Source: Candidatus Saganbacteria bacterium
Lineage (GTDB): Bacteria; Margulisbacteria; WOR-1; O2-12-FULL-45-9; XYB2-FULL-48-7
DNA: 64,000 bases
Direction of reading: 5' to 3'
NCBI GenBank assembly: GCA_016939335.1
Contig: JAFGHC010000039.1
Coordinates: forward strand, 2,376 to 66,375
Position numbers and translations under genes: made by a program. This document shows positions 16,571 through 36,953 of this stretch, in pieces. How positions within the stretch are numbered: the first letter of the stretch is position 1; each line of letters starts with the position of its first letter. A model generated the notes under the pieces. That model saw only the letters and a list, made by a program, of their open reading frames with translations, ran no database searches and was not told the origin of the DNA.

Positions 16571-16646
16571 ATATTGGTGAAGTGGGTTTACCCGTCAGGC
16601 AGGGGCTGGTATAATTGGAAAAGTCAAAAGTTAAAAGTCAAAATTT

Positions 16647-17927
16647 ATGAAGAAAACAATACTTTTAATAACTCATGAGACGCCGGTCGAGCAGGCGGTC
16701 AGAAGTGCGCTGGACGGTTTTAGCATAGAAACAGCCGGCGCCCCCGAAGCCGCCGCTGAAAAGCTGCGCCAGAGCAAGCCCGCCCTCGTCATCCTCGATC
16801 ACGACCTGAAGCAGGACGAGGGCCTCCAGCTCTTCCGCCAGCTCCGGCTGCTGGCGCCCGCCACCGGCTTTATCCTCCTTTCACAGCAGAATGATATCCC
16901 CACCGCGGTGCAGGCGGCCAAGCTCGGCGCGGCCGATTTCCTGCAAAAACCGGCCGGAGCCAAGGCACTGCGGCTCTCCGTCGAGCGGAACCTGGCCGCG
17001 GCCGAAGGATCGGCCCTGGCCGCCGCCGGCCTCCCCTGGCTGCAGGGCGAGAGCCCGGCGCTGAAAAAGATGTTCGAAGCGATCGGCGGCGCGCTGCTGA
17101 CGCGCGCCAGCCTTATTCTGGTGGCGGAGCGGGGGATCGACAAAAGCGATGTGGCCGACTGCATCCACCGGCGCAGTCTCAAGCGCAAAAGCCGCCTGCG
17201 GGTGATCGACCTCGCCTCTTTCCGCCGGGAGGACCTGGAAGGGTCGTTCTGGGCGACGGTGCAGGAGGCGGCGGGGGAGAACCAGGCCGCCGACGAAGAG
17301 GACCGCTGCGGCACGCTTTATCTCGAGAATATCGAAAGTTTGGAAGAGAGCTTCCGCTTGAGCATTTTCGAGTTTTTCAAGGAGAAGAAACCGAAGCTCG
17401 ATCCCGAAGTTCTGATCGTGATCGGCCTCTACGACCCGCATGCTCTGCCGCCCGCGCTGGCCAAACATTACCTGCAGGTGCCGGTCCCGCCGCTCTGCGA
17501 GCGCAGGGGCGACCTGCCGCTTTTGGTCGGCCGCGAGCTGGCGGCGCTCTCGCTCCGGCACGGGAAGAACGTCAACGCTCTCTCCGCCGACCTGCTTTAT
17601 CTTCTCGGTCTTTACGATTTTCCCGGCAATTACCATGAGCTCTCGGCGCTGCTCGAGATCGGCGTGCTGGCGGCCGGCGGCGAGGTGATCGGGCTGGCCG
17701 ACCTGCCGCTCGATTTCCGGACGCTGCTGCAGGCGGCGGTCACCGCGGCGCACGTCAAAGGGGAGTTGAGTTTGGAAGCGGCCCGGCGCTGGCTGGAAAA
17801 GCTGGCTTACAAAACGCTGCTGGCCAAAACGAAGTCCGATCCCGGGGCGGTAGCGCGTTTCCTCGACCTGCCGCGCACGGCGCTGGCCGAGCGGGCGGCC
17901 GAACTAGGCACTGACCTGCTTAATTAA
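16647..17927 (+). CDS. NtrC-family response regulator with a degenerate sigma54-activator ATPase domain and a C-terminal Fis-type HTH
   Basis: REC-like N-terminus (ALVILDHDL). The central domain is AAA+-like, but the Walker A position reads AERGIDKS rather than GESGTGK. C-terminal HTH ARFLDLPRTALAERAAELG. Confidence 0.65.
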   Translation: MKKTILLITHETPVEQAVRSALDGFSIETAGAPEAAAEKLRQSKPALVILDHDLKQDEGLQLFRQLRLLAPATGFILLSQQNDIPTAVQAAKLGAADFLQKPAGAKALRLSVERNLAAAEGSALAAAGLPWLQGESPALKKMFEAIGGALLTRASLILVAERGIDKSDVADCIHRRSLKRKSRLRVIDLASFRREDLEGSFWATVQEAAGENQAADEEDRCGTLYLENIESLEESFRLSIFEFFKEKKPKLDPEVLIVIGLYDPHALPPALAKHYLQVPVPPLCERRGDLPLLVGRELAALSLRHGKNVNALSADLLYLLGLYDFPGNYHELSALLEIGVLAAGGEVIGLADLPLDFRTLLQAAVTAAHVKGELSLEAARRWLEKLAYKTLLAKTKSDPGAVARFLDLPRTALAERAAELGTDLLN

Positions 17928-19235
17928 CTCCTCGGCCCGTTCCTTCGTTTTGGCCTCGGCGATGATCCTGACGATCGGTTCGGTGTTGGACGGGCGGATA
18001 TGGATCCAGCCGTCGGGATAGACCGCTTTCACCCCTTCGGTCAGGACAAGGTTGCCGCCGCTGAACACTGCTTTGCTTTTTTCAAGGAAAGCAGCCGCCT
18101 CCGCCTGGCTCCCGCATTCGACTTTCGTCTTGATCATCTCGTAACGGGGGAGTTCGGCCGCGAGCTGCGAAATTTTTTTGCCGCTGCCCGCGACAAGGGA
18201 GAGAATGAGCGCGGCGCCGGAGAGACTGTCGCGGTTCCAGCCGACTCCCGGCAGGATCACCCCGCCGTTCCCTTCGCCGCCGATCACCCCGCCGAGGCGC
18301 TTGAGCTCTTCCGTCACGTTGACCTCGCCGACCTTGGTCCGGACGAGCGTCGCGCCCGCTTCGCGGCAGACATCGTCCATTACCTGGCTGGTCGAAAGAT
18401 TGACGACGACGGTCGGCTGGCCGCCCGGTTTCGTCCCCAGCAGGTATTTGGCCGCCAGGGCGAGCGTCAATTCTTCGCCGATCGCTTCCCCCGTATCGGA
18501 AACGATCGCCAGCCGGTCGGCGTCGGAATCGACGGCAAAACCGAGGTCGGCCTTTTTCTTCCCGACCAGTTCCATCAATTCCCCGAGATTGGCCGCGACC
18601 GGCTCGGGGTCGTGCGGAAAAGGGAGCGTGATGTCGCAGTTGAGCGGCAGGACGCGGCAGCCGAGTTTTTTGAGCAGTTTGACGAGCGCTTCCGAGCCGG
18701 CGCCGTTGCAGCCGTCGACGGCGACCTTGAGCCGCGCTTGTCTGACCGCGACGGCGTCGATCTGCTGTTCCAGCACTTTCTTGATGTGGCAGTCCGTCCC
18801 TTTGCGATAACCGATAACCTTTCCTCCGGGAGCCCGGCGGAACTTCTTCCCCTCATAGATCTTGAGGAAATCGGCCCCTTCCGCCCCGTTAAGGAAAATG
18901 CCGCTCCCGCGCATGAACTTGAGCCCGTTCCACGGCAGGGGATTGTGCGAAGCGGTGATGACGATCCCGCCGGCGGCCGCCAGCTCGCGCGTCATGATCC
19001 CGACGGTCGGCGTCGGCGCGACGCCGAGGTCGATAACTTTGCAGCCGGCCGAAAGGAGCCCGGCGAACATTATCCCTTTGATCGGTTCCGACGAGCGGCG
19101 CGGGTCGGTCCCGATGACGACCGTCCCCCCTTCAAGATAAGTGCCGAACGCTTTGGCCAGGTCGAGGCAGACGTCGGGGGTGAGCGAATCGGGGACGGTC
19201 CCTCTCACGCCGGAGATCGAGATGATGAGTGTCAT
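17904..19235 (-). CDS. glmM: phosphoglucosamine mutase / phosphohexomutase family (GlmM-like)
   Basis: SGVRGTV N-terminus, active-site TASHNP, four-domain length (443 aa). Confidence 0.75.
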   Translation of the reverse strand: MTLIISISGVRGTVPDSLTPDVCLDLAKAFGTYLEGGTVVIGTDPRRSSEPIKGIMFAGLLSAGCKVIDLGVAPTPTVGIMTRELAAAGGIVITASHNPLPWNGLKFMRGSGIFLNGAEGADFLKIYEGKKFRRAPGGKVIGYRKGTDCHIKKVLEQQIDAVAVRQARLKVAVDGCNGAGSEALVKLLKKLGCRVLPLNCDITLPFPHDPEPVAANLGELMELVGKKKADLGFAVDSDADRLAIVSDTGEAIGEELTLALAAKYLLGTKPGGQPTVVVNLSTSQVMDDVCREAGATLVRTKVGEVNVTEELKRLGGVIGGEGNGGVILPGVGWNRDSLSGAALILSLVAGSGKKISQLAAELPRYEMIKTKVECGSQAEAAAFLEKSKAVFSGGNLVLTEGVKAVYPDGWIHIRPSNTEPIVRIIAEAKTKERAEELIKQVSA

Positions 19236-19276
19236 GAGGTTATTATAACCAGCTGGGCAAGTTTAGGCAAACTTAT

Positions 19277-19314
19277 GAGCGGACAAAGGGCGGGACAAGG
19301 GCAAGGGAAGAAGG
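19277..19314. repeat. family-5 purine-rich G-tract element (GGACAAAGGGCGGGACAAGGGCAAGGGAAGAAGG)
   Basis: Four GGG runs separated by 1-4 nt (GGGcGGGacaaGGGcaaGGG), a canonical G-quadruplex motif. Related copies at 21253-21415 and 26901-27045. Confidence 0.55.
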
Positions 19315-19358
19315 TGCGTAACCGCGCCCCGGCCATTCGGGCATTCGCGGCTTATTCT

Positions 19359-20273
19359 TTATCCTTTACTGCCGGCCCTAGCCGCTTCGATCAGGCGCTG
19401 AAAGATCAGTGCGATATCCTTATTAGGGCTGTAAAGAAAGCTGAATTGCGAGTGGTTTTCACGATATGGCCCGTAGATCGGCACGCCGGCTCTGTCAAAA
19501 CCATAAAAATAGACAGGGTCATACCACTTTTTATCCATGGTCAAGCCATTGGTATCCAGATGCTTAAGCGGAACGTCCGCTTCGACGGTCGCCCACCAGG
19601 CATCAAAGTTGTTCGACAGCCAGAGACGGAAGCCCGGGTTGGCCAATGAGAGGGAGACCACAGGCAAAATGACCGACTTGCTGTTATGCGAACCAACCAC
19701 ATTAAAGATGCTCCCCTTTGGATCGGCTGCCAGCCCGGCTGCTCGCAGATCGTCCAGCATATTGAACTGGGCCCTGGCGTTTGATGCCCAGGCGCTGCGG
19801 TTGCCGTCCGGGGGATTGCGTCTGATCCATTGCCCCAGACTCAAGCAATCTTTAGTTTCGCAGAGCGCCGCCGCGGCGACGAGCCGGCCGAAAACAGTTT
19901 CAAAATTCGCGGCGGTAGCAAAGCTGAACGTCGAGCGATCTTCTTCGTAATTTAGGTAGATCGGGAAATTGCTCCCTTCGTAGCGTCCCTCGGAACTGGC
20001 CGGCCGCATTTCTTTGGTGTCCAGCCTGATCTCCCGGGCGAGGCTGACGGAAACCTGCAGCTTGCCCCCGGGCAGTTCGTGCGCGTGCAGCGTCAGGCCG
20101 AGCTGATCGAGTAAGATGGTGGAAACAGGCGAAGAGAAATCCCCCCGGATGTAAGTTCCTGACTGGCAGGCGAACCCGCTGCCAGTCCTGTCAAGCAGAG
20201 TGACTGCGGCCTGCAGCCTCCTGCTTAGGTTTGATCCGGCCGGTTGTGTTGGAGCGGTCCGTTCCATTCTCAT
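19359..20273 (-). CDS. hypothetical protein, paralog A of a tandem pair
   Basis: 304 aa; starts MRMERTAPTQ and ends AARAGSKG. Shares YGPYRENxxQFS, ADPxS and WLSN motifs with the adjacent gene. Preceded by the RBS AAAACGGAGGAAATTTTATG. Confidence 0.6.
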   Translation of the reverse strand: MRMERTAPTQPAGSNLSRRLQAAVTLLDRTGSGFACQSGTYIRGDFSSPVSTILLDQLGLTLHAHELPGGKLQVSVSLAREIRLDTKEMRPASSEGRYEGSNFPIYLNYEEDRSTFSFATAANFETVFGRLVAAAALCETKDCLSLGQWIRRNPPDGNRSAWASNARAQFNMLDDLRAAGLAADPKGSIFNVVGSHNSKSVILPVVSLSLANPGFRLWLSNNFDAWWATVEADVPLKHLDTNGLTMDKKWYDPVYFYGFDRAGVPIYGPYRENHSQFSFLYSPNKDIALIFQRLIEAARAGSKG

Positions 20274-20289
20274 AAAATTTCCTCCGTTT

Positions 20290-21171
20290 TTATCCTTTAC
20301 TGCCGACCTTGGCCGCGTCGATCACGCGCTGGCAGAGCGGCAGGAAATTGGCGCCGGCATAACGCAGGCTGAACTGTGCCCGGTTTTCCCTGTACGGACC
20401 GTAAACCGGCGCCGCGGCGTCGCGGAACCCTTTGAAAGCCGATGGCCTTGGCCGGTAAGCCCCCGCCCGACCCAGACGGAGAGCGATGGCCCGCGCGTTA
20501 ACCGACAGATGCGAGCGGAAAAGATCATTGGACAGCCAGCAGTCGAGTGCCAGGTTTGGCAGGGAAAAGCGGACCACGGGCAGGCCGAAAAGCTCCCGGC
20601 CGTAAAAGAGATCATGTTCGCCGATCACGCTGAAAACGCTCTCCGGATCGGCAGCAAGACAGGCGGCGCGCAGCCTCTCCAGCCTGGCGAACTGGCTTCC
20701 GGCTTTTGTTCCCGGGAGAACACACATGGTGTTCCGCTCTGACCATTCAGCCAGACTCAAACTGTGTTCGCCCTGGTGCCTCAAGGCCGCCGCCGCTGCC
20801 ATGACCAGCTGGCCGACGACGGTTACGGGGTTCCAATAGGTAGTAAAGCTGAAGCGCGAGTGATTTTGATGATAGTCCTGATAAAGTGGGAAGCTGTGGC
20901 CTTTATCGCCCGAAAGGTCTTGCTTCTCGGCCGGCAGCGTTCCCGTGGTATCGAAACTTATTTCCCTTCGCGTGGCGACCGACATCATCAGCCTTGGCGA
21001 GACGGCCTCTCGTATCGTTACTTGCAGCCCGACGCCCGGCAGCCAGAAGACCGCGTGGTTTCCGTGGATCATTGTTGAGCCGTGGTGGTCGAGGCCCGCG
21101 GCCGCTTGATGCAATCTATCCAGTTTTGCTCTTGATCTTAAAGTTGTTGTGCCGGTCCGTTCTATGTTCAT
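20290..21171 (-). CDS. hypothetical protein, paralog B of a tandem pair
   Basis: 293 aa; starts MNIERTGTT and ends AAKVGSKG. Same motifs and the same upstream leader (AAAACGGAGGGAATTTTATG) as paralog A. Confidence 0.6.
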   Translation of the reverse strand: MNIERTGTTTLRSRAKLDRLHQAAAGLDHHGSTMIHGNHAVFWLPGVGLQVTIREAVSPRLMMSVATRREISFDTTGTLPAEKQDLSGDKGHSFPLYQDYHQNHSRFSFTTYWNPVTVVGQLVMAAAAALRHQGEHSLSLAEWSERNTMCVLPGTKAGSQFARLERLRAACLAADPESVFSVIGEHDLFYGRELFGLPVVRFSLPNLALDCWLSNDLFRSHLSVNARAIALRLGRAGAYRPRPSAFKGFRDAAAPVYGPYRENRAQFSLRYAGANFLPLCQRVIDAAKVGSKG

Positions 21172-21252
21172 AAAATTCCCTCCGTTTTTATCGGGCAGTT
21201 TCCACCTTGAATTTATCTTAACCTTCCGGCGGAAATTTCACTTTTTTCAGAC

Positions 21253-21415
21253 AGGGGGCAAGAGAAAAGGCAAGGGAAGGCAAGGAAGGGCGGGATAAAG
21301 GGCAAGACAAAAGGCGCCTTCTGTTCCGCCTTTTGCCCCGCCTTCTGTCCCGCCCTCACGTGCCTTCATGTGCCGTTTGTCCCGCCTTCTGTCCCGCCCT
21401 CTGTCCCCATTGCAG
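21253..21415. repeat. family-5 purine-rich / pyrimidine-rich palindromic repeat
   Basis: Purine arm GGGGGCAAGAGAAAAGGCAAGGGAAGGCAAGGAAGGGCGGGATAAAGGGCAAGACAAAAGGCG. It is followed by its complement-like pyrimidine arm, with CCGCCTTCTGTCCCGCCCT repeated three times. Located in the divergent promoter region between paralog B and the Memo gene. Confidence 0.6.
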
Positions 21416-21446
21416 TTTTATTTCATTTATATTATATTAATGAGCA

Positions 21447-22229
21447 ATGAGCATCGTTTTCGCCGCGATCATGCCGCATCCGCCGATCCTTGTTCCGCCG
21501 ATCGGCAAAGAGCGCTTAAAGGACGCGGAAAAAAGCAAGCTGGCGCTGGAAGAGATCTCCCGCCGTTTTAAAAATCTTGATTTCGATACTATCGTCGTCA
21601 TCACGCCGCACGGCGACGTCGGCCAGGCCTCGGTCCCCGTCTACACCGGCCACGTTTTCGAGGGGAACTTCGGGGCGTTCGGCCTGCCCAAGCCTTCTTT
21701 CGTCTATAAAGGCGACCCGCAGCTCGGCCTGGCCGTCGTCAAGGATTCGCCGCTTGCCACCGCCTGCCCGGAGACGATCCTCGACCACGGCGTCCTCGTG
21801 CCGCTCTATTATCCGACCGCCGCCGGGATCAGGAAACTCCTCCTGCCGATCGCCGTCGGCTTTCTGCCGCTCTCAAAATTGTTCGAGTTCGGGCGGTCGC
21901 TCGCGCGGACGATCGACCGGCTCGGCCGGAAAGTTCTGCTGATCGCTTCCGCCGACCTGTCGCACCGGCTGACGCACGAGGGGCCGGGCGGCTACTCGCC
22001 GCGCGGCAAGGAATTCGACGACAAGCTGGTCGGGCTGGTCGGCAGTTACGACGTGAACGGGCTCCTGAAATTCGATCCCGACCTGGCGGAAGAGGCCGGG
22101 CAGGACGCCCTCTGGTCGATCGCGATCCTGCTCGGCGCGCTCGACGGTAAAAAGGTCGGGCCCGAGGTCATTTCTTACGAGGGGCCGTTCGGCGTCGGTT
22201 ATCTGGTCGCCGCTTTAGAGGTGAACTGA
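21447..22229 (+). CDS. AmmeMemoRadiSam system protein B (MEMO1 / extradiol-dioxygenase class III-like)
   Basis: N-terminus [20 protein letters not shown] and HGDVG are typical of the Memo/LigB family; 260 aa. Confidence 0.75.
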
Positions 22230-22741
22230 TGGGCGAGCACCCGCTGGTCCAGCTGGCCAGAAGGACGATCGAAAAATATATCCGCGAAGGTTTGGTGCTT
22301 GAAACGCCGGCGGAGCCGACGCCGGAAATGAAGGAGCGGGCGGGCGTTTTCGTTTCGCTCCACCGCCGCGGCGAACTGCGCGGCTGTATCGGCACGTTCC
22401 AGCCGGCGGCGGAGAACGTTGCCAAGGAGATCATTAACAACGCGATCGAGGCGGCGACGCGCGACCCGCGCTTCCCGCCGCTCACGCCGGCCGAGCTGGC
22501 GGACCTGGAAATTTCGGTCGACGTCCTGGGCCGGCCCGAACCGGTCGCTTCGCAAGCCGAGCTTGACCCGAAGCAATACGGCTGTATCGTCCGGGCCGGC
22601 GCCCGCCGCGGGCTGCTCCTCCCCGACCTGCCGGGGGTGGAGACGGCCGGCCAGCAGATCGCCAGCTGCAAGGCGAAGGCCGGCATCCCGGAGCGGGACG
22701 AAGTGGAACTGTACAGGTTCGAAGTTAAGCGCTATCATTGA
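22229..22741 (+). CDS. AmmeMemoRadiSam system protein A (AMMECR1 domain)
   Basis: [19 protein letters not shown] core with a conserved Cys; 170 aa; start overlaps the stop of the Memo gene. Confidence 0.75.
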
Positions 22742-22744
22742 GAC

Positions 22745-22865
22745 AAAGTCAAAATTAAAAAGTCAAAAGTCAAAAGTGCAATTCAAAAGTAAAAAGTTGA
22801 CGAGCGTGGGTAAATTTTGAATTTTTACTTGTAATTTTGAATTTTTACTTTTGACTTTTGAATTA
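22745..22865. repeat. family-3 inverted repeat built from TCAAAAG and CAAAAGTAAAAA units
   Basis: Left arm AAGTCAAAATTAAAAAGTCAAAAGTCAAAAGTGCAATTCAAAAGTAAAAAG. The right arm is its near reverse complement (TAAATTTTGAATTTTTACTTGTAATTTTGAATTTTTACTTTTGACTTTTGAATT). AT-rich island in a GC-rich intergenic region. Confidence 0.7.
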
Positions 22866-22905
22866 GAAGGCCGTATCTTATGTTAAAGGGGAGTCGATGT
22901 AAGCT

Positions 22906-23958
22906 ATGTTGAAAGTTGGTATTATCGGGGCGGGCGGCTACGCCGGGGCGACGCTGATCAATCTTTTGCTGCGCCACCCGGAAGCCGCGATCGTCTGGCT
23001 GATGTCGGAGGACGCGCACCAGGGGAAAAAGATCGCCGATCTCTATCCGCATTTGACGGGGCAACTCAACCTCGCCTGCCAGACGCTGGCCGACCTTGAC
23101 AAGAATTTAAGCTCCATTGATCTCGTTTTCCTGGCCCTGCCGCACGGCATCGCTATTAATTATGTCCCCAGGATCATTGACGCCGGCAAGCGGGTCGTCG
23201 ACCTCGGGGCCGATTACCGCTTCGCCGACAACGCCGTCTTTAAAAAATGGTACGGCCTCGAGCACGCGACGGAAAAATATTTAAAACAGGCGGTCTTCGG
23301 CCTGCCCGAGCTCTACCGCGCCGAGATCAAGAAGACAAAGCTCGTCGGCAACCCCGGCTGTTATCCGACCGCCGCGATCCTCGGCGCGGCGCCGCTCGTG
23401 AAGCACGGCCTGGTCGAGCTCGATTCGCTCATCGTCGACGCCAAATCGGGCGTTTCCGGCGCGGGGCGCGGCGTCTCGCTCAAGGCCCACTTCTGCGAGC
23501 GGAACGAGGGGCTCGAGGCTTACGCCGTCACCACCCACCGCCATATGGGGGAGATAGAATATCAGATCAGCAGAATATCAGGGGGCCAGATAAACGTAAC
23601 GTTCGTCCCCCACCTGACGCCGATGACGCGCGGGATTTTGGCGACGATCTATGCCAAAGTCAAAAGTCAAAAGTCAAAAGTCAAAAATGAGGAATTAACG
23701 CAATTATATAAAGATTTTTATAAGGGCGAGCCGTTTGTCCGGGTCTTTGACGATAAATTGCCTAACACCAAGTTCGTGGCGGGGACCAATTATTGCGACA
23801 TCGGCGTGCAGTACAACGAAGCGACCGGGCAGGTGATCGTCATTTCGGCGATCGATAACCTCGTGAAAGGCGCGGCCGGCCAGGCCGTCCAGAACATGAA
23901 CCTTCTCTGCGGCTTCCCGGAAACGACTGCGCTCCAGCAGCTCGCCGTCTACCCATGA
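22906..23958 (+). CDS. argC: N-acetyl-gamma-glutamyl-phosphate reductase
   Basis: MLKVGIIGAGGYAG Rossmann N-terminus and catalytic GNPGCYPTA motif. An in-frame AAGTCAA x4 tract lies at 23656-23688. Confidence 0.9.
   Translation: MLKVGIIGAGGYAGATLINLLLRHPEAAIVWLMSEDAHQGKKIADLYPHLTGQLNLACQTLADLDKNLSSIDLVFLALPHGIAINYVPRIIDAGKRVVDLGADYRFADNAVFKKWYGLEHATEKYLKQAVFGLPELYRAEIKKTKLVGNPGCYPTAAILGAAPLVKHGLVELDSLIVDAKSGVSGAGRGVSLKAHFCERNEGLEAYAVTTHRHMGEIEYQISRISGGQINVTFVPHLTPMTRGILATIYAKVKSQKSKVKNEELTQLYKDFYKGEPFVRVFDDKLPNTKFVAGTNYCDIGVQYNEATGQVIVISAIDNLVKGAAGQAVQNMNLLCGFPETTALQQLAVYP
23656..23688 (+). repeat. tandem heptanucleotide tract (AAGTCAA x4) inside the argC coding sequence
   Basis: AAAGTCAAAAGTCAAAAGTCAAAAGTCAAAAAT encodes KVKSQKSKVK in frame. 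The same heptamer builds the intergenic family-3 repeats at 16621 and 22745. Confidence 0.75.
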
Positions 23959-25061
23959 GCATCACCGCGCCGGAGGGCTTTACCGCGGCGGCGCTCGCCG
24001 CCGGCATCAAACAGTCGGGCAACCTCGACCTCGCCCTCATTTATTCCGAGGCGCCGGCGGCGGTCGCCGGAGTTTTTACCGGCAATAAATTCAAGGCGGC
24101 GCCCGTTCTTATTTCGCGGAAGCACATCAAGTCCGGTCTCTGCCAGGCGATCATCGCGAACGCCGGCTGCGCCAACTGCGGCACCGGCCGGCAGGGCCTG
24201 GCCGACGCCGAACTGATGGCGGCCGAGGCCGCCCGGGCGCTCGGCCTCAAACCGGAACATGTCCTTGTCACCTCGACCGGCTCGATCGGCAAGTTCCTGC
24301 CGATGAAAAATATCGTGCCGGCCATCCGGCCGCTGGCCGCGAAACTCGCGAAAGCGGGCGGGGCGGACGCCGCGCGGGCGATCATGACGACCGACACGCG
24401 CCCGAAGGAGATCGCCGTCAAAGTTGACGGCTACACCGTCGCCGGGATCGCCAAGGGCTCCGGCATGATCCATCCGGATCTGGCGACGATGCACGCCTTT
24501 ATCACCACCGACGCGGCGGTCCCGCGTGCGCTGCTGCAGAAATTCCTCAAGCAGGCGGTCGCCGTTTCGTTCAACATGACGACGGTCGATCAGTGCCAGT
24601 CGACCAACGACTGCGTCTTCGCGCTGGCGAACGGTCTCTCCGGGTCGCGGGTCACGAGTCACGGGTCGCAGGCGCGGTTTTACAAGGCGCTGGCAGCGGT
24701 CTGCGTTTATCTGGCCAAGGAGATCGCGCGCGACGGGGAGGGGGCGACCCAGCTGATCGAAGTACGGGTCAGCGGCGCGCGCAGCGACAAGGAAGCGCGG
24801 CTGGCCGCGCGCGCCATCGCCGGTTCCGATCTTTTGAAATGCGCCGCCTACGGCAGGGACTATAATCCCGGCCGGGTCCTGGCGGCGGCGGGCGCGACCG
24901 GCGTCCGGCTCGATCAGGACCGGATGACCGCTGACATGAAATTCCTTGATAAAGAAACGATCGTTACCTGTGACCTGGGCGTTGGCAAAGCTTCGGCCGT
25001 CGCCTGGGGCTGTGATCTGACCGAAGGGTACATTAAAATAAACGCGGAGTACCATACGTGA
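23955..25061 (+). CDS. argJ: bifunctional glutamate N-acetyltransferase / amino-acid acetyltransferase
   Basis: Autoprocessing motif GMIHPDLATMHAFITTDA (ATM-T) and DGEGATQLIEVRVSGA. Confidence 0.9.
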   Translation: MSITAPEGFTAAALAAGIKQSGNLDLALIYSEAPAAVAGVFTGNKFKAAPVLISRKHIKSGLCQAIIANAGCANCGTGRQGLADAELMAAEAARALGLKPEHVLVTSTGSIGKFLPMKNIVPAIRPLAAKLAKAGGADAARAIMTTDTRPKEIAVKVDGYTVAGIAKGSGMIHPDLATMHAFITTDAAVPRALLQKFLKQAVAVSFNMTTVDQCQSTNDCVFALANGLSGSRVTSHGSQARFYKALAAVCVYLAKEIARDGEGATQLIEVRVSGARSDKEARLAARAIAGSDLLKCAAYGRDYNPGRVLAAAGATGVRLDQDRMTADMKFLDKETIVTCDLGVGKASAVAWGCDLTEGYIKINAEYHT

Positions 25062-25197
25062 ACAATCAAATAACAAACAACAAATTACAGACAATACCAA
25101 ATTGCCGAAATTCTAATGTTCAAAACGGCGCTGTTTATTCACTTTGATCATTGTGATTTAGAAATTGTTTGTTATTTGATGCTTGTTATTTGTTATT
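25062..25197. repeat. family-2 AT-rich MITE-like element, copy A
   Basis: Terminal inverted repeats CAAATAACAAACAA ... TTGTTTGTTATTTGATGCTTGTTATTTGTTATTT. An internal GTTTGTTATTTGATGCTTGT 20-mer and ATACCAAATT are identical to copy B at 41323-41455. Confidence 0.7.
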
Positions 25198-25217
25198 TAT
25201 GAGGAATGGAGGCATGA

Positions 25218-26084
25218 ATGTTTAAGCATCTGATCAGACGCGCTAACGCGGTCCTGGAAGCTCTGCCGTACCTGACCAAGTTCAACGGCAAGACGATCGT
25301 CGTTAAATACGGCGGCGCGGCGATGCAGAGCGACGAGCTCAAACAGGGAGTGATCCAGGATATCGTCCTGCTCAAGATGTGCGGCATGGAGCCGATTCTT
25401 GTCCACGGCGGCGGCCCCGAGATCAACAAGTACCTGCGCAAGAAGGGGATCGAGCCGAAGTTCGTCGGCGGTTACCGCGTCACCGATAAGGAGACGATGA
25501 AGATCGTCCAGAAAGTGCTCGGCGAAAAGATCAACCAGCAGATCGTTTCGCTGATCAAAAAAGCGGGCGGCAAGGCCAAGGGGTTCTACGGCAAAAAGGG
25601 CCGCGTGATCAAAGCTTTCAAATACTGGAAGAAGGATGCCGAGGGGAACAAGCTCGACCTCGGCTTCACCGGCCAGGTCGGCGGCATCCGCTACCGCTAT
25701 CTCAACAAGTGGATGAAGCTCGGCTACATCCCGGTGCTGACCTCGATCGGGGTGGGGAAGCGCGGCGGCATCTACAATATAAATGCCGACAAGGCGGCGG
25801 CGGCGATCGCCGCCTACCTCAAGGCGGAAAAGCTGATCATGATGACCGACGTGCAAGGGGTCCTGGAGGGCGGCAAGCTGGTCTCCGAGCTGAACACCTA
25901 CCGGGCGGAGAAGATGATCAGGCAGGGCTCGATCTCCGGCGGCATGATCCCCAAGGTCAAGTCGTGCCTCTACGCCCTGCGCAAAGGGGTCAAGACCGCG
26001 CACATCATCGACGGCCGCCTGCCGCACTCGATCCTCCTCGAGCTCTTCACCGACCACGGCATCGGCACGATGGTAAGGAAATAG
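25218..26084 (+). CDS. argB: acetylglutamate kinase
   Basis: KTIVVKYGGAAM N-terminus; 288 aa. The 3' end is duplicated downstream (see the insertion finding). Confidence 0.9.
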   Translation: MFKHLIRRANAVLEALPYLTKFNGKTIVVKYGGAAMQSDELKQGVIQDIVLLKMCGMEPILVHGGGPEINKYLRKKGIEPKFVGGYRVTDKETMKIVQKVLGEKINQQIVSLIKKAGGKAKGFYGKKGRVIKAFKYWKKDAEGNKLDLGFTGQVGGIRYRYLNKWMKLGYIPVLTSIGVGKRGGIYNINADKAAAAIAAYLKAEKLIMMTDVQGVLEGGKLVSELNTYRAEKMIRQGSISGGMIPKVKSCLYALRKGVKTAHIIDGRLPHSILLELFTDHGIGTMVRK

Positions 26085-26092
26085 GGGGCAAG

Positions 26093-26284
26093 ATGACTTG
26101 GCTGTCTAAAATACTTCATCGCAGTGGCCGGCCCCAAATTCCGGTTGGCATTTCCCCGAAGCCGAGTATTGATAGCCCAAATTGTCCGCGCTCATTTCTG
26201 GAGGAACGCTATCTGAGCGATGGACGACATTTTAGTATTGCCCAAAGGATTACGAGTAACCCGACAGTAGTGGCAAATGATTAA
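26093..26284 (+). CDS. small hypothetical protein (63 aa), first gene of the inserted cassette
   Basis: ATG 3 nt after the argB-end direct repeat. Lower GC. Stop overlaps the next ATG (aaATGAttaa). Confidence 0.4.
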   Translation: MTWLSKILHRSGRPQIPVGISPKPSIDSPNCPRSFLEERYLSDGRHFSIAQRITSNPTVVAND

Positions 26285-26870
26285 CAAGGCTTCGATCAGC
26301 CGGGGTCAGGGGGAGTTGGCCGATCTGGCCCGCAGCCCGATCCATGATGTGAAAATACCGGTGGCCAAGAATTCAGCGGCAGGCGGCGATACACTACGAG
26401 AACTGGCGGTTGCGGCTGAGAAAGAGTTGCAGGATGTTAAATTGCCTGACTGGCAGGCCTGGCAGAAAGAGCCCAACAACAACATCTTAGCGGCTTGCGC
26501 CGCCCATCTGAATACCCCGCCGGATATTTTGGGGAGACTGGTAAAGGGCCCGAACTCGGGACGAATAGCCGTGCTTAATCCCCGGACGCCAGCGCAGGCA
26601 GTAGTTGATTATTTGAAGGCAAATGAGGAAAAGATAGCGGAAACAGAGCTTGGCTTGGCAGATCAATATTTTGTCGATCATTATCCGCTAGAAGAGACCC
26701 TGGTCGATCCAGCGGCGGTAAGGGAAATCGAGTTTTTATTGCAACTGGTCGGATCATTAGATAAGCGCTCGGACAGGCAAGACATTGAACAGAAATTGTC
26801 GACTGAAATGAAAGATCAGTTTGCGCAGCTGCGGCGAATTAATCAGCAAATGCTTGGTTCGCGCGCATAG
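26277..26870 (+). CDS. hypothetical protein (196 aa), second gene of the inserted cassette
   Basis: Translationally coupled to the preceding small ORF. No recognisable motifs. Its stop codon is the first triplet of the second copy of the argB-end repeat. Confidence 0.5.
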   Translation: MINKASISRGQGELADLARSPIHDVKIPVAKNSAAGGDTLRELAVAAEKELQDVKLPDWQAWQKEPNNNILAACAAHLNTPPDILGRLVKGPNSGRIAVLNPRTPAQAVVDYLKANEEKIAETELGLADQYFVDHYPLEETLVDPAAVREIEFLLQLVGSLDKRSDRQDIEQKLSTEMKDQFAQLRRINQQMLGSRA

Positions 26871-26900
26871 ACCACGGCATCGGCACGATGGTACGCAAAT

Positions 26901-27045
26901 AGGGGGCGGGACAAAAGGCAAGTAAGGGCAAGTGAGGGCGGAACAAACGGTGGGAAAGAGAAAAAGGGCGCCCTTTGTTCCGCCTTTTGTTTTGCCCTTT
27001 CCCCCTTTCCTTGCCCTCCCTTGCCCTTTGTTCCGCCCTTTCCCT
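26901..27045. repeat. family-5 purine-rich / pyrimidine-rich palindromic repeat
   Basis: GGGGGCGGGACAAAAGGCAAGTAAGGGCAAGTGAGGGCGGAACAAACGG ... GGGCGCC ... CCTTTGTTCCGCCTTTTGTTTTGCCCTTTCCCCCTTTCCTTGCCCTCCCTTGCCCTTTGTTCCGCCCTTTCCC. Central hairpin GGCGGAACAAA / TTTGTTCCGCC. Confidence 0.6.
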
Positions 27046-27089
27046 AATTCCCTGAAATTTCCCGGCCCCCCTGCCGAAGAATAACTGTT

Positions 27090-27608
27090 ATGGCATATAT
27101 GCGAATAGTCAGGGGGGATTCGGGAGACGCGATATTCCAGGCCAGGGCCGAGAGGTATTTCAATAGTTCGCGCTTTCCTCTGAACATGAAACATGAAGTG
27201 CTGGCCCTCTTCATGGGCAGGTGCCTGAATATCTCGAACTCTCCCCGTAGCGCCGTCCATCTGACCGGCGAGACCGTGGAGTCGCTGTCACGCAAATTTC
27301 CCGTAAGCCACCACGCCTTTGCCCAGACGGTACTGCTTGGCCCGGCAGACGGCTTTCTTTTTGAAATAACGCAGGCGGAATGGACCTTGAACCGGCACTG
27401 TTCTCTCTTTTCTTTACGGTTGCAGTATTCAAGCGGCGCCGACCTGGCCAAACCCCGGCAGGCCGCAGAAGTCGATTGGCCGGCGGTAGTAGCGAACCTC
27501 CGCGCTTACGTCATGTCTCGCATTCCGGAGTATTTGCGTTCCCAGACCCAGGCTTACTTCGAGGTTGAAAACAACGCCATCGATGGCCTGCTGATCGTCC
27601 CCCGCTAA
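27090..27608 (+). CDS. hypothetical protein
   Basis: 172-aa ORF with GC-rich codon usage; no recognisable motifs. Confidence 0.45.
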   Translation: MAYMRIVRGDSGDAIFQARAERYFNSSRFPLNMKHEVLALFMGRCLNISNSPRSAVHLTGETVESLSRKFPVSHHAFAQTVLLGPADGFLFEITQAEWTLNRHCSLFSLRLQYSSGADLAKPRQAAEVDWPAVVANLRAYVMSRIPEYLRSQTQAYFEVENNAIDGLLIVPR

Positions 27609-27614: not shown

Positions 27615-27790
27615 TCTTCAACCACCCAACCCCTCTCCCCCTGGGAGAGGGCGTAAACGACAAAATATTGTATGACGAGAAATTGGGTGAGGGCTGTTCG
27701 CTTCTCCAGCTTCACCGCCTTTCCCCTCTCCCTCTGGGAGAGGGGGGCCGGTTTGTGTAAGCGGGTGAGGGCTGTCTCAAAGTGCCGCTA
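27615..27790. repeat. tandemly duplicated ~85-bp unit, each copy with a CCCCTCTCCC..GGGAGAGGG hairpin and a GGGTGAGGGCTGT motif
   Basis: Hairpins at 27630-27653 and 27723-27747; GGGTGAGGGCTGT at about 27685 and about 27764. Lies between the convergent 27090 gene and gltX. The hairpins are not followed by T-runs. Confidence 0.5.
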
Positions 27791-29207
27791 TCGCCTTGTC
27801 CAGCCTCGCGCCGACCTTCTCTTTCCCCAGAATGGCGACCACATCGTACATCGGCGGGGTTTCGGCGCGGCCGGAGAGGGCGAGGCGGCACGGGTGGATG
27901 ACGGCGCCGAGTTTCAGCTTCATCTCTTCTGCCAGAGTTTTGAAAACCGGCTCGATCTTCTCTTTGGCGAAAGGCTCAAGCGCGGCCAGGCGGTCCTTCA
28001 AAGTCGTCAGGATAACTTTTGCGTTCGCCGTCTTAAAATGCTTCTCGGCCGCCTTGGGGTCATATTCAAAATCATCTTTAAAGAAATAAGCCGAGAGCCC
28101 GACGATCTCGGGGATGAGGACCAGCCGGTCCTGGAAGACCGCGACGACTTTTTTCATGTACGCCAGGTCGTGCCTGCCGTAAGCGTCGATGAGGAGCGGT
28201 TCGCACAGGTCGAAGAGCCGCTCCGGCAGCAGCTTGCGGATATACTGGCCGTTCAGCCACTTGAGCTTTTCCATGTCGAAGACCGCCGGGTTCTTCGTCA
28301 CCCCGTCGAGCGAAAAGAACTCGATCAGCTCCTGCCGGGAAAAGACCTCCTGGTCGCCGTGCCCCCAGCCGAGCCGGGCGATGTAATTGATCATCGCTTC
28401 GGGCAGATATCCCAGGCCGTTGTACTCGATGACCGAGGTCGCGCCGTGCCGCTTCGACAGCCGCGCTTTGTCCCGGCCGAGGATCATCGGCAGGTGGGCG
28501 AATTTGGGGAGCGCCCAGCCGAACGCCTGGTATAATAAAATTTGGCGCGGCGTGTTGGAAAGATGGTCGTCCCCGCGGATGACGTGCGAGATTTCCATCA
28601 GGTGGTCGTCGACCACGCAGGCGAAATTGTAGGTCGGGAAGCCGTCCGACTTCAAGATGACGAAGTCGTCGAGCACTTCGTTCTGGAAAACGACCCGCCC
28701 GCGGACCAGGTCGTCGACCGCCGTCTCGCCGACCGGCGGCAGCCGGAACCGGATGACGTACGGCGTCCCGGCGGCCAGTTTGGCCTTGAGCTCTTCGGCG
28801 GAGCGTTTGCGGCAGGTGCCGTCGTAGCGCGGCGCCTCTTTTCTGGCTTCGGCTTCTTTCCGGCGCTGCGCTAGCTCTTCCGCCGTGCAGAAACAGTAGT
28901 AGGCTTTGCCTTCGTCGACCAATTGTTGCGCGTATTTCTGGTGGAGCGCCAATCTTTCCGTTTGGTAATAGGGGCCGAATGGGCCGCCGGTGTTGGGACC
29001 TTCGTCCCAGTCGATCCCCAGCCATTCGAGGCCGTGAAAGATCGCTTTGTTGGCCTCAAGCGTCGAGCGCTCCCGGTCGGTGTCCTCGATCCGCAGGATG
29101 AACTTGCCGTTCAGGTGGCGGGCGAAGAGCCAATTGAAGAGCGCGGTCCGCGCGCCGCCGATGTGCAGGGCGCCGGTGGGGCTGGGTGCAAAGCGTACTC
29201 GTACCAT
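27777..29207 (-). CDS. gltX: glutamate--tRNA ligase
   Basis: MVRVRFAPSPTGALHIGGARTALFNWLFARH (HIGH motif) and KLSKRHG (KMSKS). Confidence 0.9.
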   Translation of the reverse strand: MVRVRFAPSPTGALHIGGARTALFNWLFARHLNGKFILRIEDTDRERSTLEANKAIFHGLEWLGIDWDEGPNTGGPFGPYYQTERLALHQKYAQQLVDEGKAYYCFCTAEELAQRRKEAEARKEAPRYDGTCRKRSAEELKAKLAAGTPYVIRFRLPPVGETAVDDLVRGRVVFQNEVLDDFVILKSDGFPTYNFACVVDDHLMEISHVIRGDDHLSNTPRQILLYQAFGWALPKFAHLPMILGRDKARLSKRHGATSVIEYNGLGYLPEAMINYIARLGWGHGDQEVFSRQELIEFFSLDGVTKNPAVFDMEKLKWLNGQYIRKLLPERLFDLCEPLLIDAYGRHDLAYMKKVVAVFQDRLVLIPEIVGLSAYFFKDDFEYDPKAAEKHFKTANAKVILTTLKDRLAALEPFAKEKIEPVFKTLAEEMKLKLGAVIHPCRLALSGRAETPPMYDVVAILGKEKVGARLDKAIAAL

Positions 29208-32740: not shown

Positions 32741-33520
32741 ATGACCGTTCTCGACGATATTATTGCCGACAAGCGCCGGGAAGTCGCCGCCCTCAAGGCC
32801 CGCGGGGGCCCCGGCAAGCTCGAGACGCTGGTCGGTCAGCTTCCCGCCCCGCGAGATTTCCTGGCCGCGCTGCCGCGCGGCAGGATGTCGCTCATCGCCG
32901 AGATCAAGAAAGCTTCCCCTGCGGCCGGCGTGCTGGCGGAGCGGTTCGAGCCGGCCGCTCTCGCCCGGGCTTATGAGGAGGGCGGGGCGGCGGCGCTCTC
33001 GGTCCTGACCGACGGCAAGTATTTCCAGGGGAAGCTCGCTGACCTCAAGGCCGCCAAGGACCCGACCACCATCCCCGTCCTGCGCAAGGACTTCATCATC
33101 GACGAGGCGCAGCTTTATGAATCGCGTATCAACGGCGCCGACGCCGTCCTGCTGATCGCCGCCGTCCTCGCGCCGGCGCAGCTGAAGAATTATCTTGAGC
33201 TTGCGCACCGGCTGCGAATGCCCTGCCTGGTCGAGATCAGGGACGGGGCGGAGGCCGAGCGGGCCCTGAAGGCCGGCGCGCGGCTTATTGGCATCAATAA
33301 CCGCGACCTTAAGACATTTAAAGTGGATTTCAGGACGACCCTGGACCTGCTGGCAAAATATCCGGAACTGAAAAAAAAGGTCATCGTTTCCGAAAGCGGC
33401 ATCATTGCCGCGGAGCAGGTCGGGGAGTTGCGAGCGGCCGGCGTTTCCGCTGTCCTGGTCGGCACCAGCCTCATGACCAGCCCTGACATTGGGAAGAAGA
33501 TAAGGGAACTGTTGGGATGA
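32741..33520 (+). CDS. trpC: indole-3-glycerol phosphate synthase
   Basis: LIAEIKKASPAAGVL (conserved E-K-S-P), VLTDGKYFQG and IGINNRDL motifs. Confidence 0.85.
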   Translation: MTVLDDIIADKRREVAALKARGGPGKLETLVGQLPAPRDFLAALPRGRMSLIAEIKKASPAAGVLAERFEPAALARAYEEGGAAALSVLTDGKYFQGKLADLKAAKDPTTIPVLRKDFIIDEAQLYESRINGADAVLLIAAVLAPAQLKNYLELAHRLRMPCLVEIRDGAEAERALKAGARLIGINNRDLKTFKVDFRTTLDLLAKYPELKKKVIVSESGIIAAEQVGELRAAGVSAVLVGTSLMTSPDIGKKIRELLG

Positions 33521-34560
33521 AAATCCGAAATCCGAAATCAGAAATACGAAATAATTTCGAAATTCGAAATTCGAATTTCCTTCGAATTTCGTTATTCGTA
33601 TTTCGGATTTGCGCGCTCTCATTAGTGGCGGCATCCGCTTTCGCCCTCGGCGAGGTCCCCGCCACTAGCGAAATAATCAACCCGTCGGTCGCTTACGTCC
33701 GGGAGTTCGGTTCGGGCGGCTCCGGTGAGCGCCAGTTCTACTTTCCGCAGGACGTCAGGTCGGCCCAGCTCGGCGACCTCGAGACGGCGCTCAATAATCT
33801 CTATATCGCCGACACCGGCAACAACCGGGTCCAGCGGCTCGACGAGAACGGCGGTTTCGTCTACCAGTTCGGCGGCTTCGGCCACGAGGACGGCAGGTTC
33901 AACACGCCGGTCGGCATCGCCGTCGACTTCAATTTCCGCCTTTATGTTTCGGAAAAAGACAGCGACCGGATCCAGCAGTTCGACATACGCGGCAACTTCC
34001 TCCGCGAGGTCGGCAGCGGCGAGGTCAACCTGCGCGCCCTCCAGGACCCGGCCGGCCTCGACGTCGACTCGCTCGGTTATCTTTACGTCGCCGATTCGGG
34101 CAACGACCGGGTGCTGAAGTTCGATCCCGCGGGCAATTTCGTCAGCGAAGTCGGCGGCTTCGGCATCGGCCCCGGCTTTCTCAACAAGCCGCTCGATGCG
34201 GCGGCCGACCGCGACCGCAACATTTACGTGGCCGACACCGGCAATAACCGGGTCCAGAAGTTCGATTTTGACGGCCGCCCCGTCTTCTCCTTCGGCCGCT
34301 CCGGCGGCGGGCCGGGCGAGCTGTCGGCCCCTTCGGCGCTCGCGGTCGACGACAAGTTCATTTATGTTTCCGACACCGGCAACGACCGCCTCTGCCTTTT
34401 TTCCCGGCAGGGGAAGTTCCTCCTTGCTTTCGGCCAGAAAGGGGCGGGGCCGGGCGAATTCAACGCGCCGCTCGGGCTCAGCCTCGGCCGGCAGGGGCGC
34501 ATTTACGTTGCCGACAGCGGCAATCACCGGATCGTTGAGCTTAGGGTAAAATGGCGCTAA
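33517..34560 (+). CDS. NHL-repeat six-bladed beta-propeller protein (secreted)
   Basis: Six repeats of the DxxGNIYVADTGNNRVQKFD type. ATG at 33517 overlaps the trpC stop. Codons 2-30 run through a family-1 repeat copy; alternative GTG at about 33622 within the hydrophobic segment. Confidence 0.7.
   Translation: MKIRNPKSEIRNNFEIRNSNFLRISLFVFRICALSLVAASAFALGEVPATSEIINPSVAYVREFGSGGSGERQFYFPQDVRSAQLGDLETALNNLYIADTGNNRVQRLDENGGFVYQFGGFGHEDGRFNTPVGIAVDFNFRLYVSEKDSDRIQQFDIRGNFLREVGSGEVNLRALQDPAGLDVDSLGYLYVADSGNDRVLKFDPAGNFVSEVGGFGIGPGFLNKPLDAAADRDRNIYVADTGNNRVQKFDFDGRPVFSFGRSGGGPGELSAPSALAVDDKFIYVSDTGNDRLCLFSRQGKFLLAFGQKGAGPGEFNAPLGLSLGRQGRIYVADSGNHRIVELRVKWR
33522..33610. repeat. family-1 palindromic repeat
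   Basis: AAATCCGAAATCCGAAATCAGAAATACGAAATAATTTCGAAATTCGAAATTCGAATTTCCTTCGAATTTCGTTATTCGTATTTCGGATTT. Confidence 0.7.
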
Positions 34561-34680
34561 AATCCGAATATCGAAATTCGAAATACGAAACGAATTCGAA
34601 ATCCGAAACAGAGAAAACCGTTTTAGAAATTCGAATTTTCCCCGTTTGTTTCGAGATTCGATATTCGAATTTCGGATTTA
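34561..34680. repeat. family-1 palindromic repeat (long copy)
   Basis: AATCCGAATATCGAAATTCGAAATACGAAACGAATTCGAAATCCGAAACAGAG...TTCGAGATTCGATATTCGAATTTCGGATTT. Confidence 0.7.
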
Positions 34681-36152: not shown

Positions 36153-36245
36153 ATCAGAATATTGAATATCGAAACTCGAAATAATTGGGGCAAAATTCGA
36201 ATTTCGAATTCCCTTCGAATTTCGAGATTCGGTTTTCGAATTTAG
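36153..36245. repeat. family-1 palindromic repeat
   Basis: AATCAGAATATTGAATATCGAAACTCGAAATAATTGGGGCAAAATTCGAATTTCGAATTCCCTTCGAATTTCGAGATTCGGTTTTCGAATTT. Confidence 0.65.
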
Positions 36246-36255
36246 AAGGCATGAG

Positions 36256-36543: not shown

Positions 36544-36548
36544 GCCCC

Positions 36549-36953
36549 CTAGCCCCTAGCCCCTTTGTCAATAAGCTCGGCAAATTTCCAGGCCATCATA
36601 AAGATCTCCCGCAGTTGTCTGGAAGTAGGCCTTTCAATAACGCTAATGCTGTGCCCGCTTTTGCCGGGTCCAAGCGGTTCGATCCAGAGAAAACGCTGGC
36701 GGACTGGCGGCCTGGCCCTGTTCGTCCCTTCGCCTCCCAATATATTTGTCATCAGCGCGTCCACTTCTGAACTGGAAAGGCGGGGAAGTTTTCTCCCCGG
36801 GGCGGCGGCGCCATTTTTTTGCGGCCCAAAATATATTTCAGCCGAGGTGAGAGTGGCGATGCCGCTGGCCGCCAGGCGCGCATTATAAGCCGCTACCCGC
36901 AGTGTTCTTAATGTGATCGGTTTCGGCCTGACCATCAGTTCATTCCCGCTCAT
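36549..36953 (-). CDS. hypothetical protein
   Basis: About 134 aa from ATG at 36953 (MSGNELMVRPKP...). The track ORF extends to 37010. Confidence 0.4.
   Translation of the reverse strand: MSGNELMVRPKPITLRTLRVAAYNARLAASGIATLTSAEIYFGPQKNGAAAPGRKLPRLSSSEVDALMTNILGGEGTNRARPPVRQRFLWIEPLGPGKSGHSISVIERPTSRQLREIFMMAWKFAELIDKGARG

Follow-up and report, generated by a model that had tools for sequence, protein, structure and literature searches.

What are the purine-rich and pyrimidine-rich repeats that occupy three gaps between genes of a Candidatus Saganbacteria genome, and is G-quadruplex (G4) formation the property that explains them? The repeats, referred to here as family 5, were found in a 64,000-nucleotide stretch of contig JAFGHC010000039.1 (assembly GCA_016939335.1, positions 2,376 to 66,375; hereafter the window), where they form two long elements, A and B, and one shorter arm, C. 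A preliminary description of this DNA regarded them as mirror-arranged palindromes carrying several canonical G4 motifs, with C-rich partners capable of forming i-motifs. On balance, we favour a different reading, in which two of the three loci are long, imperfect palindromes of DNA and the third is an orphan arm, and the hairpin or cruciform, not the G-quadruplex, is the dominant structural potential. We interpret family 5, with a probability of roughly 0.55, as the G/C-rich family of a class of dispersed, fast-turnover, non-coding palindromic repeats, a class that some Saganbacteria carry and others do not.

Anatomy and folding of the three loci

Inspection of the sequence confirmed that the repeated words and their purine and pyrimidine arms are present as described. 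The arms, however, are inverted (reverse-complement) repeats and not mirror images, with a complementarity of 73% over 67 nt in element A and 80% over 40 nt in element B. Elements A (21250-21408) and B (26899-27046) are each about 150 nt long, lack a loop and are centred on GGCGCC, with arms of 65-75 nt and a predicted stem of about 50-55 pairs. An H-DNA or triplex mirror repeat was considered and rejected, as the arms are reverse complements and a C interrupts every unit of the purine arms.

Both elements fold far more stably than their shuffled counterparts, as RNA (A, -86.2 kcal/mol, z -6.1; B, -80.7 kcal/mol, z -5.8) and as DNA (A, -43 kcal/mol, z -5.3; B, -40 kcal/mol, z -4.2). Arm C alone forms no hairpin (z +0.5 against shuffles), so that the palindromic character ascribed to all three loci holds for A and B, and the locus at 19277-19314 is a solo arm. 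Given that the two strands of A and of B fold about equally and that G-U versus A-C pairs show no consistent bias, we read both elements as palindromes at the level of DNA; the same comparison of pairs, lacking a consistent strand preference, gives no indication of selection at the level of RNA.

The two elements are related to each other. They align with a mean column identity of 68%, have their ends and the GGCGCC centre in common, and are 68-80% alike overall; A's right arm and B's left arm show 80% complementarity, and the termini of both are inverted (YAGGGGGC... / ...GCCC-CT-R). Judged from its letters, a short segment directly after the argB stop codon (26081-26094) resembles the left end of a truncated family-5 arm. 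The 3' arm of A exceeds the 5' arm in length, and the 19-nt word CCGCCTTCTGTCCCGCCCT occurs in it twice as an exact copy (21338 and 21382, 44 nt apart) and not in the left arm, which looks like a recent internal duplication.

Each arm is a degenerate tandem array whose unit is a GGCRRG hexamer (GGCAAG, GGCGGG or GGCGGA) followed by an A-rich spacer of 4-6 nt. Tandem Repeats Finder (TRF) puts the period at 10-12 and counts 5.2 copies in A's left arm and 8.1 in its right arm. Purine content is 83-86% or pyrimidine content 80-87%, depending on the arm, and 36-nt segments that are at least 86% purine or pyrimidine fall chiefly within these arms, the remainder being one skewed coding region and a few short spots. 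The phased triple GGCRRG-N4-7-GGCRRG-N4-7-GGCRRG occurs four times in the window, always within the three loci, where a first-order Markov model leads one to expect 0.01; phased pairs number 15, ten of them inside the loci, against an expectation of 2.8. Together with folding z-scores of -4.2 to -6.1, the triples bear out the view that this is structure-forming DNA and not random low complexity. The words themselves are not uniformly common in coding DNA, at least as regards the long word TGTCCCGCC/GGCGGGACA, whose five occurrences in the window all lie in the loci; coding DNA throughout the window often contains the short words GGAAGG and GGCAAG.

G-quadruplex potential

We scored G4 motifs under a strict rule (four G-tracts of at least 3, loops of 1-7 nt) and a relaxed rule (loops of up to 12 nt). 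Several stretches had been thought to satisfy the strict rule; only 19288-19307, in arm C, does so, which leaves a strict motif in one of the five family-5 arms, in a window that holds seven. The arms at 21274, 21381 (minus strand) and 27014 (minus strand) qualify only with one loop of 9-11 nt, and the left arm of B does not qualify even with loops of up to 12 nt. A further relaxed motif at 27042-27071 (minus strand) mostly lies in the flank of element B.

G4 prediction, which the preliminary description had proposed for the whole genome, was run across the window. The three loci cover about 0.6% of the window and hold 5 of its 16 relaxed motifs, and among the longest stretches with a G4Hunter score of at least 1.2, first place and a shared fourth place go to family-5 arms. 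At a score of at least 1.5, however, there are about 50 sites in this window of 60% GC, mostly in coding DNA, and just one of them is a family-5 arm. The G4 potential of the arms is therefore real but modest, and in the full palindromes it competes with a very stable hairpin; the long hairpin or cruciform, and not a G4 or i-motif, is the dominant predicted structure. It is possible that single arms, and especially the orphan arm at 19288-19307, form a G4 or an i-motif, as a secondary and not a conserved property.

Orthologous sites in related genomes

We compared eight syntenic loci from seven related Saganbacteria genomes, denoted by handles beginning with L, two of which (L111 and L112) are strains of one genome. 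The par1 product (19359-20273) is identical to a protein in an NCBI metagenome-assembled genome that bears the name Candidatus Saganbacteria, and the nearest reference genome is that of a candidate division WOR-1 bacterium, with 79% ArgC identity. In these relatives the orthologous intergenic sites are empty, occupied by a solo array, or occupied by a palindrome of another unit. The gap between the phosphoglucosamine/phosphomannomutase-like (PGM) gene and the LigB/Memo-like (LigB) gene, and that between argB and gltX, are variable islets whose cargo differs in each genome that has one, and all family-5 copies, as well as the truncated start at 26081-26094, lie at the borders of or inside these two islets. 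The PGM gene is just 25-40 nt from LigB in L116 and L118, and argB overlaps gltX in L002 and L118. From LigB to argB the genes abut or overlap, with no palindromes, in L002, L113, L114, L117 and L118, and L116 has a repetitive extragenic palindrome (REP)-like element between argJ and argB.

Replacement is most direct in L111 (81% ArgC identity), which has a homolog of the paralogous genes par1 and par2 and carries long palindromes at the exact sites of C and A. These are built of unrelated units, of the AGTATCAG type (z -5.0) and the AACTAAC/ACTACG type (z -5.4), and the promoter-side flank is conserved at each. We considered whether the repeat family is tied to the par paralogs and rejected this, as palindromes belonging to other families flank the par homolog of L111; what the repeat family follows is thus the host genome and not the cargo. 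At the site of the right arm of A, L113, L114 and L115 have solo C-rich heptamer arrays, and the complement of the L114 array is of the GGGGACT type, which is the Nostoc G4 repeat (Rehm et al. 2015, PMC4692102).

An association with rearrangements, which had also been suggested, is supported in so far as every copy sits at or in an islet that differs among the nine genomes compared. Comparison of the strains L111 and L112 gave 23 differences, all at one contig end and none in hairpins. Exact-protein look-ups for other strains returned a single sample (SRR13394437), in which the contig is 100% identical to the window, so that no population variation could be seen.

Searches farther afield returned no relatives of the elements. 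Rfam 15 at the gathering score identified four tRNAs only in the window and no RNA family at the loci; a metagenome scan with GGGCGGGAYAAARGGCAAG gave 28 matches, all of them chance occurrences inside coding DNA such as ClpP, and no family-5 element; BLAST of element A against plasmid and phage collections gave no match; and a literature search found nothing on such repeats in Saganbacteria.

Gene neighbourhood and promoters

The placement in promoter or terminator gaps beside paralogs and the argB insertion was correct: all three loci are intergenic and adjoin par1, par2 or the argB-proximal insertion (Table 1). Element A takes up the space that separates par2 from the divergent LigB gene, stopping 1 nt short of the promoter-like block of LigB, and arm C begins 6 nt upstream of the predicted -35 box of the PGM gene; predicted -35 boxes thus adjoin two of the three loci. 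The start of element B coincides with a relic stop codon of argB and lies 26 nt past the stop of orf197, with co-directional open reading frames (ORFs) on either side. The PGM -35 region (GTTTAGGCAAACTTAT on the plus strand) is kept in L111. The LigB block was not flagged by the consensus promoter scan; its TTGCAGTT...TATATTAT core is kept in the six genomes aligned, and from this conservation we infer a promoter role.

Table 1. Positions in the window of family-5 features, promoters, genes and other palindromes.
Feature	Position	Strand	Remarks
Arm C, solo purine-rich family-5 arm	19277-19314	+	GAGCGGACAAAGGGCGGGACAAGGGCAAGGGAAGAAGG; sole strict G4 motif of the family-5 arms at 19288-19307
Element A, 5' purine-rich arm	21250-21315		five GGCRRG hexamers (GGCAAG/GGCGGG), A-rich spacers of 4-6 nt, period 10-12
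Element A, dyad centre	21311-21320		AAGGC/GCCTT, perfect, loop-less, read from the sequence
Element A, 3' pyrimidine-rich arm	21316-21408		about 8 copies of CGCCTTCTGTCC, period 12
Element B, 5' purine-rich arm	26899-26969		outermost bases take in the TAG stop of the duplicated argB 3' end
Element B, dyad centre	26963-26976		AAAGGGC/GCCCTTT, perfect, loop-less, read from the sequence
Element B, 3' pyrimidine-rich arm	26970-27046		complement has G4Hunter of at least 1.5 at 26992-27027; relaxed G4 motif at 27014-27038
Segment directly after the argB stop	26081-26094	+	ATAGGGGGCAAGAT; compare CAGGGGGCAAGAG at 21252
Predicted sigma-70-type promoter of PGM gene	19242-19270	-	TTGCCT-17-TATAAT, 10/12 matches, consensus scan
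Promoter-like block upstream of LigB	21410-21438	+	TTGCAG-17-TATATT; gene starts at 21447
Response regulator	16647-17927
PGM	17904-19235	-
par1 paralog	19359-20273	-
par2 paralog	20290-21171	-
LigB/Memo-like	21447-22229
AMMECR1	22229-22741
argC	22906-23958
argJ	23955-25061
argB	25218-26084
orf197	26277-26870
orf172	27090-27608
gltX	27777-29207	-
AAAGTCA palindrome	22745-22864
CAAATAAC palindromes	25061-25198; 41319-41456		the former between argJ and argB
AAATCCG palindromes	3820-3911; 33521-33610; 34560-34679; 36170-36250
TAACTGA-like palindrome	492-612		between two divergent tRNA genes

Several further observations concern these neighbours. For the PGM and LigB genes, the predicted -10 boxes (19233-19247 and 21433-21449) end 6-8 nt before the start codons, so that each mRNA may lack a leader. 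The 38-nt 3' end of argB is doubled on the plus strand (26052-26089 and 26870-26907, starts 818 nt apart, 95% identical), and the copies bracket 780 bp with orf197. The two differing bases turn AGG into CGC, a synonymous change of Arg, and the second copy still encodes ...DHGIGTMVRK*, an arrangement that suggests an insertion through recombination with a second argB allele. The tandem paralogs par1 and par2 are about 300 amino acids (aa) each, with two domains of about 150 aa apiece. No Pfam family was found for par1, whose 109 remote homologs are mostly single-domain proteins of about 160 aa; its AlphaFold model is confident (pLDDT 91.7, pTM 0.87), and comparison of the model with the PDB gave no fold match (best E 0.02, TM at most 0.2). 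A par homolog adjoins LigB in two other genomes (three contigs).

Other palindromes in the window

Family 5 has company. About ten further long palindromes in the window have the same architecture and other units, mostly A/T-rich heptamers, and a period of 7 or 14 is the modal class among tandem repeats (23 of 63 arrays). We examined polarity in a set of 18 palindromes from the window, L111, L113, L114 and L115: in all 18 the 5' arm is rich in A and the 3' arm in T, and G/C orientation varies. Since this A-to-T polarity reads alike on either strand, it is a real property of the class; and since A/T polarity is conserved while the orientation of G versus C is not, G4 capacity does not define the elements. 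Palindromes also occur in core operons that hold no cargo (between AMMECR1 and argC, and between argJ and argB), and other class members begin 0-5 nt past stop codons inside operons.

Some of these palindromes recur in relatives. The one between argJ and argB is 92% identical to positions 922-1077 of L111, where ArgJ itself is about 82% identical, and its 3' arm and the ribosome-binding site are 100% conserved between the window and L111 over about 60 nt. L115 matches the window in having an AAAGTCA palindrome between AMMECR1 and argC, and members of the AAATCCG and AAAGTCA families were also found in the Saganbacteria contigs L113 and L115. A second copy of the argJ-argB element, at 41319-41456 and by eye about 75% like it, lies ahead of an unrelated gene that encodes RF-1 and hydrolase domains, for which reason an arginine-specific leader was rejected.

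The TAACTGA-like palindrome abuts the mature 5' ends of both divergent tRNAs, so that each arm would fall in a separate transcript and the palindrome cannot act as an RNA hairpin there. AAATCCG palindromes bracket an NHL-repeat gene and also follow orf348, and both genes are missing from the compact IGPS-HIT-YbaB arrangement of L118. The longest ORF of the NHL-repeat gene starts at 33517 and reads across one of these palindromes (33517-33640) as KIRNPKSEIRNNFEIRNSNF; its true start is probably downstream, and such repeats can thus inflate gene calls. The AAAGTCA unit is also present as 4.4 perfect copies within the argC coding sequence (23656-23686, translated KVKSQKSKVK) and, in the leader of the gene for the response regulator (16619-16647), as a solo array. 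A 153-aa minus-strand ORF (36549-37010), not found in L118, is bordered by 2.7 copies of CCCCTAG (36546-36564, overlapping its 3' end) and 2.8 copies of GGGGGATTTC (37020-37052); both are G-tract arrays of the Nostoc/Xanthomonas type, the second with a strict G4 motif at 37020-37047. Short GC-rich REP-like hairpins (CCCCTCTCCC-N-TGGGAGAGGG) form a distinct family at 27630-27651 and 27723-27746, with related forms in L002 (20272-20352) and L116 (13487-13582).

Explanations considered

In the explanation that we prefer, a dispersed palindromic repeat family, each element is two convergent tandem arrays, units against their reverse complements, that meet at the loop-less GGCGCC. Some copying mechanism would spread the elements to new intergenic sites, as the shared termini and centre and the 70-80% identity of A and B suggest. 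Slippage or duplication within arms would then alter the copies quickly, which would probably yield arms of unequal length, arms without a partner and, at a given site in sister genomes, the complete exchange of one unit for another. The favoured alternative form would be a long hairpin, as a cruciform in the supercoiled duplex or as a long stem-loop if transcribed. The elements take up whatever spacer separates a stop codon or a promoter from the promoter that follows, with a preference for places where core genes adjoin accessory islets. In our judgement they are for the most part selfish or neutral structural DNA and not sequence-specific regulators; at most they would act as general boundaries, for instance by the insulation of transcription units or the absorption of supercoils. 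As to the regulatory or recombinogenic role put forward in the preliminary description, we do not adopt it; the link with variable junctions could equally arise from these being the only places where spacer DNA is free.

A number of points weigh against this explanation. With only 2.5 family-5 copies, 68-80% alike, the basis for speaking of a family is thin. An array of some kind lies directly upstream of the LigB promoter block in five of the six genomes for which upstream sequence was read, and this persistence, together with the A-to-T polarity found in 18 of 18 palindromes, suggests selection and not neutrality. The phasing of GGCRRG at 10-12 nt would also suit a DNA-binding protein, and relative to genes the arms are oriented by the rule that Rehm et al. 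report for G4-forming repeats in Xanthomonas and Nostoc (PMC4692102). As regards mobility, no transposase was seen among the part of the window genes scanned against Pfam, elements A and B have no target-site duplication or flanking direct repeat, and no excision polymorphism was found.

It is unlikely, in our view, that family 5 consists of G4 or i-motif regulatory elements whose arms fold upstream of promoters or in untranslated regions and so modulate transcription or translation, as proposed for the GGGNATC and GGGGAYT heptamers of Xanthomonas and Nostoc (PMC4692102). The strict motif in arm C, the concentration of relaxed motifs in the loci and the ranking of the arms among G4Hunter stretches would all be expected, arm orientation fits the rule of Rehm et al., who also describe convergent pairs, and in L114 the orthologous counterpart of the site of A's right arm holds a GGGGACT-type array. 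Yet most arms need a loop of 9-11 nt or fail, in the full elements the adjacent complementary arm offers a hairpin worth -40 to -43 kcal/mol as DNA or -81 to -86 kcal/mol as RNA, and high-scoring G4Hunter sites are common in coding DNA. Moreover, the invariant feature of the class is A/T and not G/C polarity, and sister genomes carry A/T-rich palindromes incapable of forming a G4 at the same sites. Another possibility is that co-transcribed arms form a long stem-loop that acts in transcripts, as a bidirectional terminator or attenuator, a 3'-end stabilizer or an RNase III site at gene borders. We regard this with similar doubt. An A-rich 5' arm followed by a U-rich 3' arm is the architecture expected of bidirectional intrinsic terminators, and the polarity of all 18 palindromes conforms to it; element B lies between co-directional ORFs, from the relic argB stop onwards, and other class members follow closely on the stop codons of operons. 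Element A, however, lies between divergent genes just before the -35-like box of LigB, and arm C likewise lies upstream of a predicted -35 box, so that neither is probably transcribed as a hairpin; nor is there a strand preference in G-U pairing. An intrinsic terminator as such was rejected, as the consensus scan flags none of the three loci and the centres are loop-less.

Two further explanations seem to us improbable. Convergent GGCRRG boxes about one helical turn apart could serve as operator-like or centromere-like arrays, bound cooperatively by a DNA-binding protein, and both their highly non-random spacing of 10-12 nt and the predicted -35 boxes that adjoin two of the three loci fit such a role. 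At least four other unit families of the same architecture, mostly with a 7-nt period, are present in the same 64 kb, however, and each would need a protein of its own; the same promoters are accompanied by unrelated units in sister genomes, and no candidate regulator is adjacent, the paralogs showing no detectable DNA-binding family or fold match. We attach as little weight to structure-specific recombination sites, similar to integron attC, through which accessory genes would insert. The restriction of family-5 copies to the borders or interior of two variable islets agrees with this, as do the AAATCCG palindromes at the NHL-repeat gene and orf348, two genes that L118 lacks, and the retention of architecture but not sequence by palindromes at orthologous sites. 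Against it, palindromes also occupy core operons free of cargo, and the orientation of genes relative to the hairpins is inconsistent. No integrase or recombinase was noticed among the genes examined, a part of those in the window, and the ends of A and B have no R'' (RYYYAAC) or R' (GTTRRRY) cores, on which ground attC itself was rejected. A composite of these ideas likewise seems to us improbable: palindromes as boundary or recombination modules that bracket accessory genes in an attC-like manner but without a known integrase, their A-to-T polarity insulating the junctions, and family 5 switching between cruciform and G4 or i-motif upstream of promoters.

If the explanation by dispersed palindromic repeats is correct, the loci do not indicate G4 regulation and are the tip of an undescribed repeat landscape in an uncultured sibling lineage of Cyanobacteria, in which dozens to hundreds of long tandem-unit palindromes would punctuate an otherwise compact genome, their sequence wholly replaced between genus-level relatives while position and polarity persist. 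In practical terms, such palindromes can break short-read assemblies and be mis-called as coding, as in the ORF at 33517. In evolutionary terms they mark the junctions of core and accessory genes, and mechanistically the invariant A-to-T polarity of their arms calls for explanation.

Comparison with known repeat systems

Family 5 shares features with several known classes. Like palindromic MITEs (miniature inverted-repeat transposable elements; Correia/NEMIS, ERIC, RUP), its members are small, non-coding, intergenic and dispersed, with conserved termini and often a position beside promoters or terminators. Unlike MITEs, they have no target-site duplication or parent transposon, are 68-80% alike and consist internally of tandem units; assignment to MITEs was rejected because no flanking target-site duplication, near-identical copies or related autonomous element was found. 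REPINs, or REP doublets (Bertels & Rainey 2011, PMC3116915), and bacterial interspersed mosaic elements (BIMEs) are likewise extragenic inverted hairpin doublets of about 100-150 nt, and REPINs resemble family 5 in having several families per genome, in singlets that are read as decayed copies and in being non-autonomous. In REPINs, however, every REP is itself short and imperfectly palindromic, and the doublets have a link to a RAYT transposase gene (PMC3116915). The arms of family 5 are nearly all-purine or all-pyrimidine and hence cannot be self-complementary as REPs are, so that a REPIN or REP identity was rejected, and no RAYT was seen among the part of the window genes scanned against Pfam.

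The short tandemly repeated repetitive (STRR) or heptamer direct repeats of cyanobacteria, Beggiatoaceae and Bacteroidetes, such as TAACTGA (MacGregor 2015, PMC4679880), are also short intergenic units near gene starts with a patchy phylogenetic distribution, and the window has TAACTGA-like heptamers at 495-526. The cyanobacterial and Beggiatoaceae repeats resemble the other families of the window. They form mostly direct arrays, with one inverted case among 170 sets (PMC4679880), whereas the inverted pair is the rule here and the family-5 period is 10-12 nt and not 7. Saganbacteria are, according to bioRxiv 10.1101/328856, a sibling lineage of Cyanobacteria.

The intergenic G-rich heptamer repeats of Xanthomonas (GGGAATC) and Nostoc (GGGGA(C/T)T) often occur as convergent pairs, one array on each strand, whose possible stem-loops or cruciforms compete with G4; upstream of ORFs their G-rich strand is the antisense one, and past stop codons it is the sense one (PMC4692102). 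The family-5 unit does not correspond to the GGGNATC/GGGGAYT heptamer, being degenerate and 10-12 nt long, with a single strict G4 motif among the arms and a loop-less centre; the host is a member of Saganbacteria, and the G-rich family is here a minority beside A/T-rich families of the same architecture. The location agrees in each respect, with intergenic convergent inverted pairs, G-rich strands antisense upstream of ORFs and sense after stops. Short G-tract units, convergent arrays, the orientation rule relative to ORFs and a variable unit number are common to both, and on the best reading the convergent G-rich repeat pairs of Xanthomonas (PMC4692102) are the closest known counterpart of family 5.

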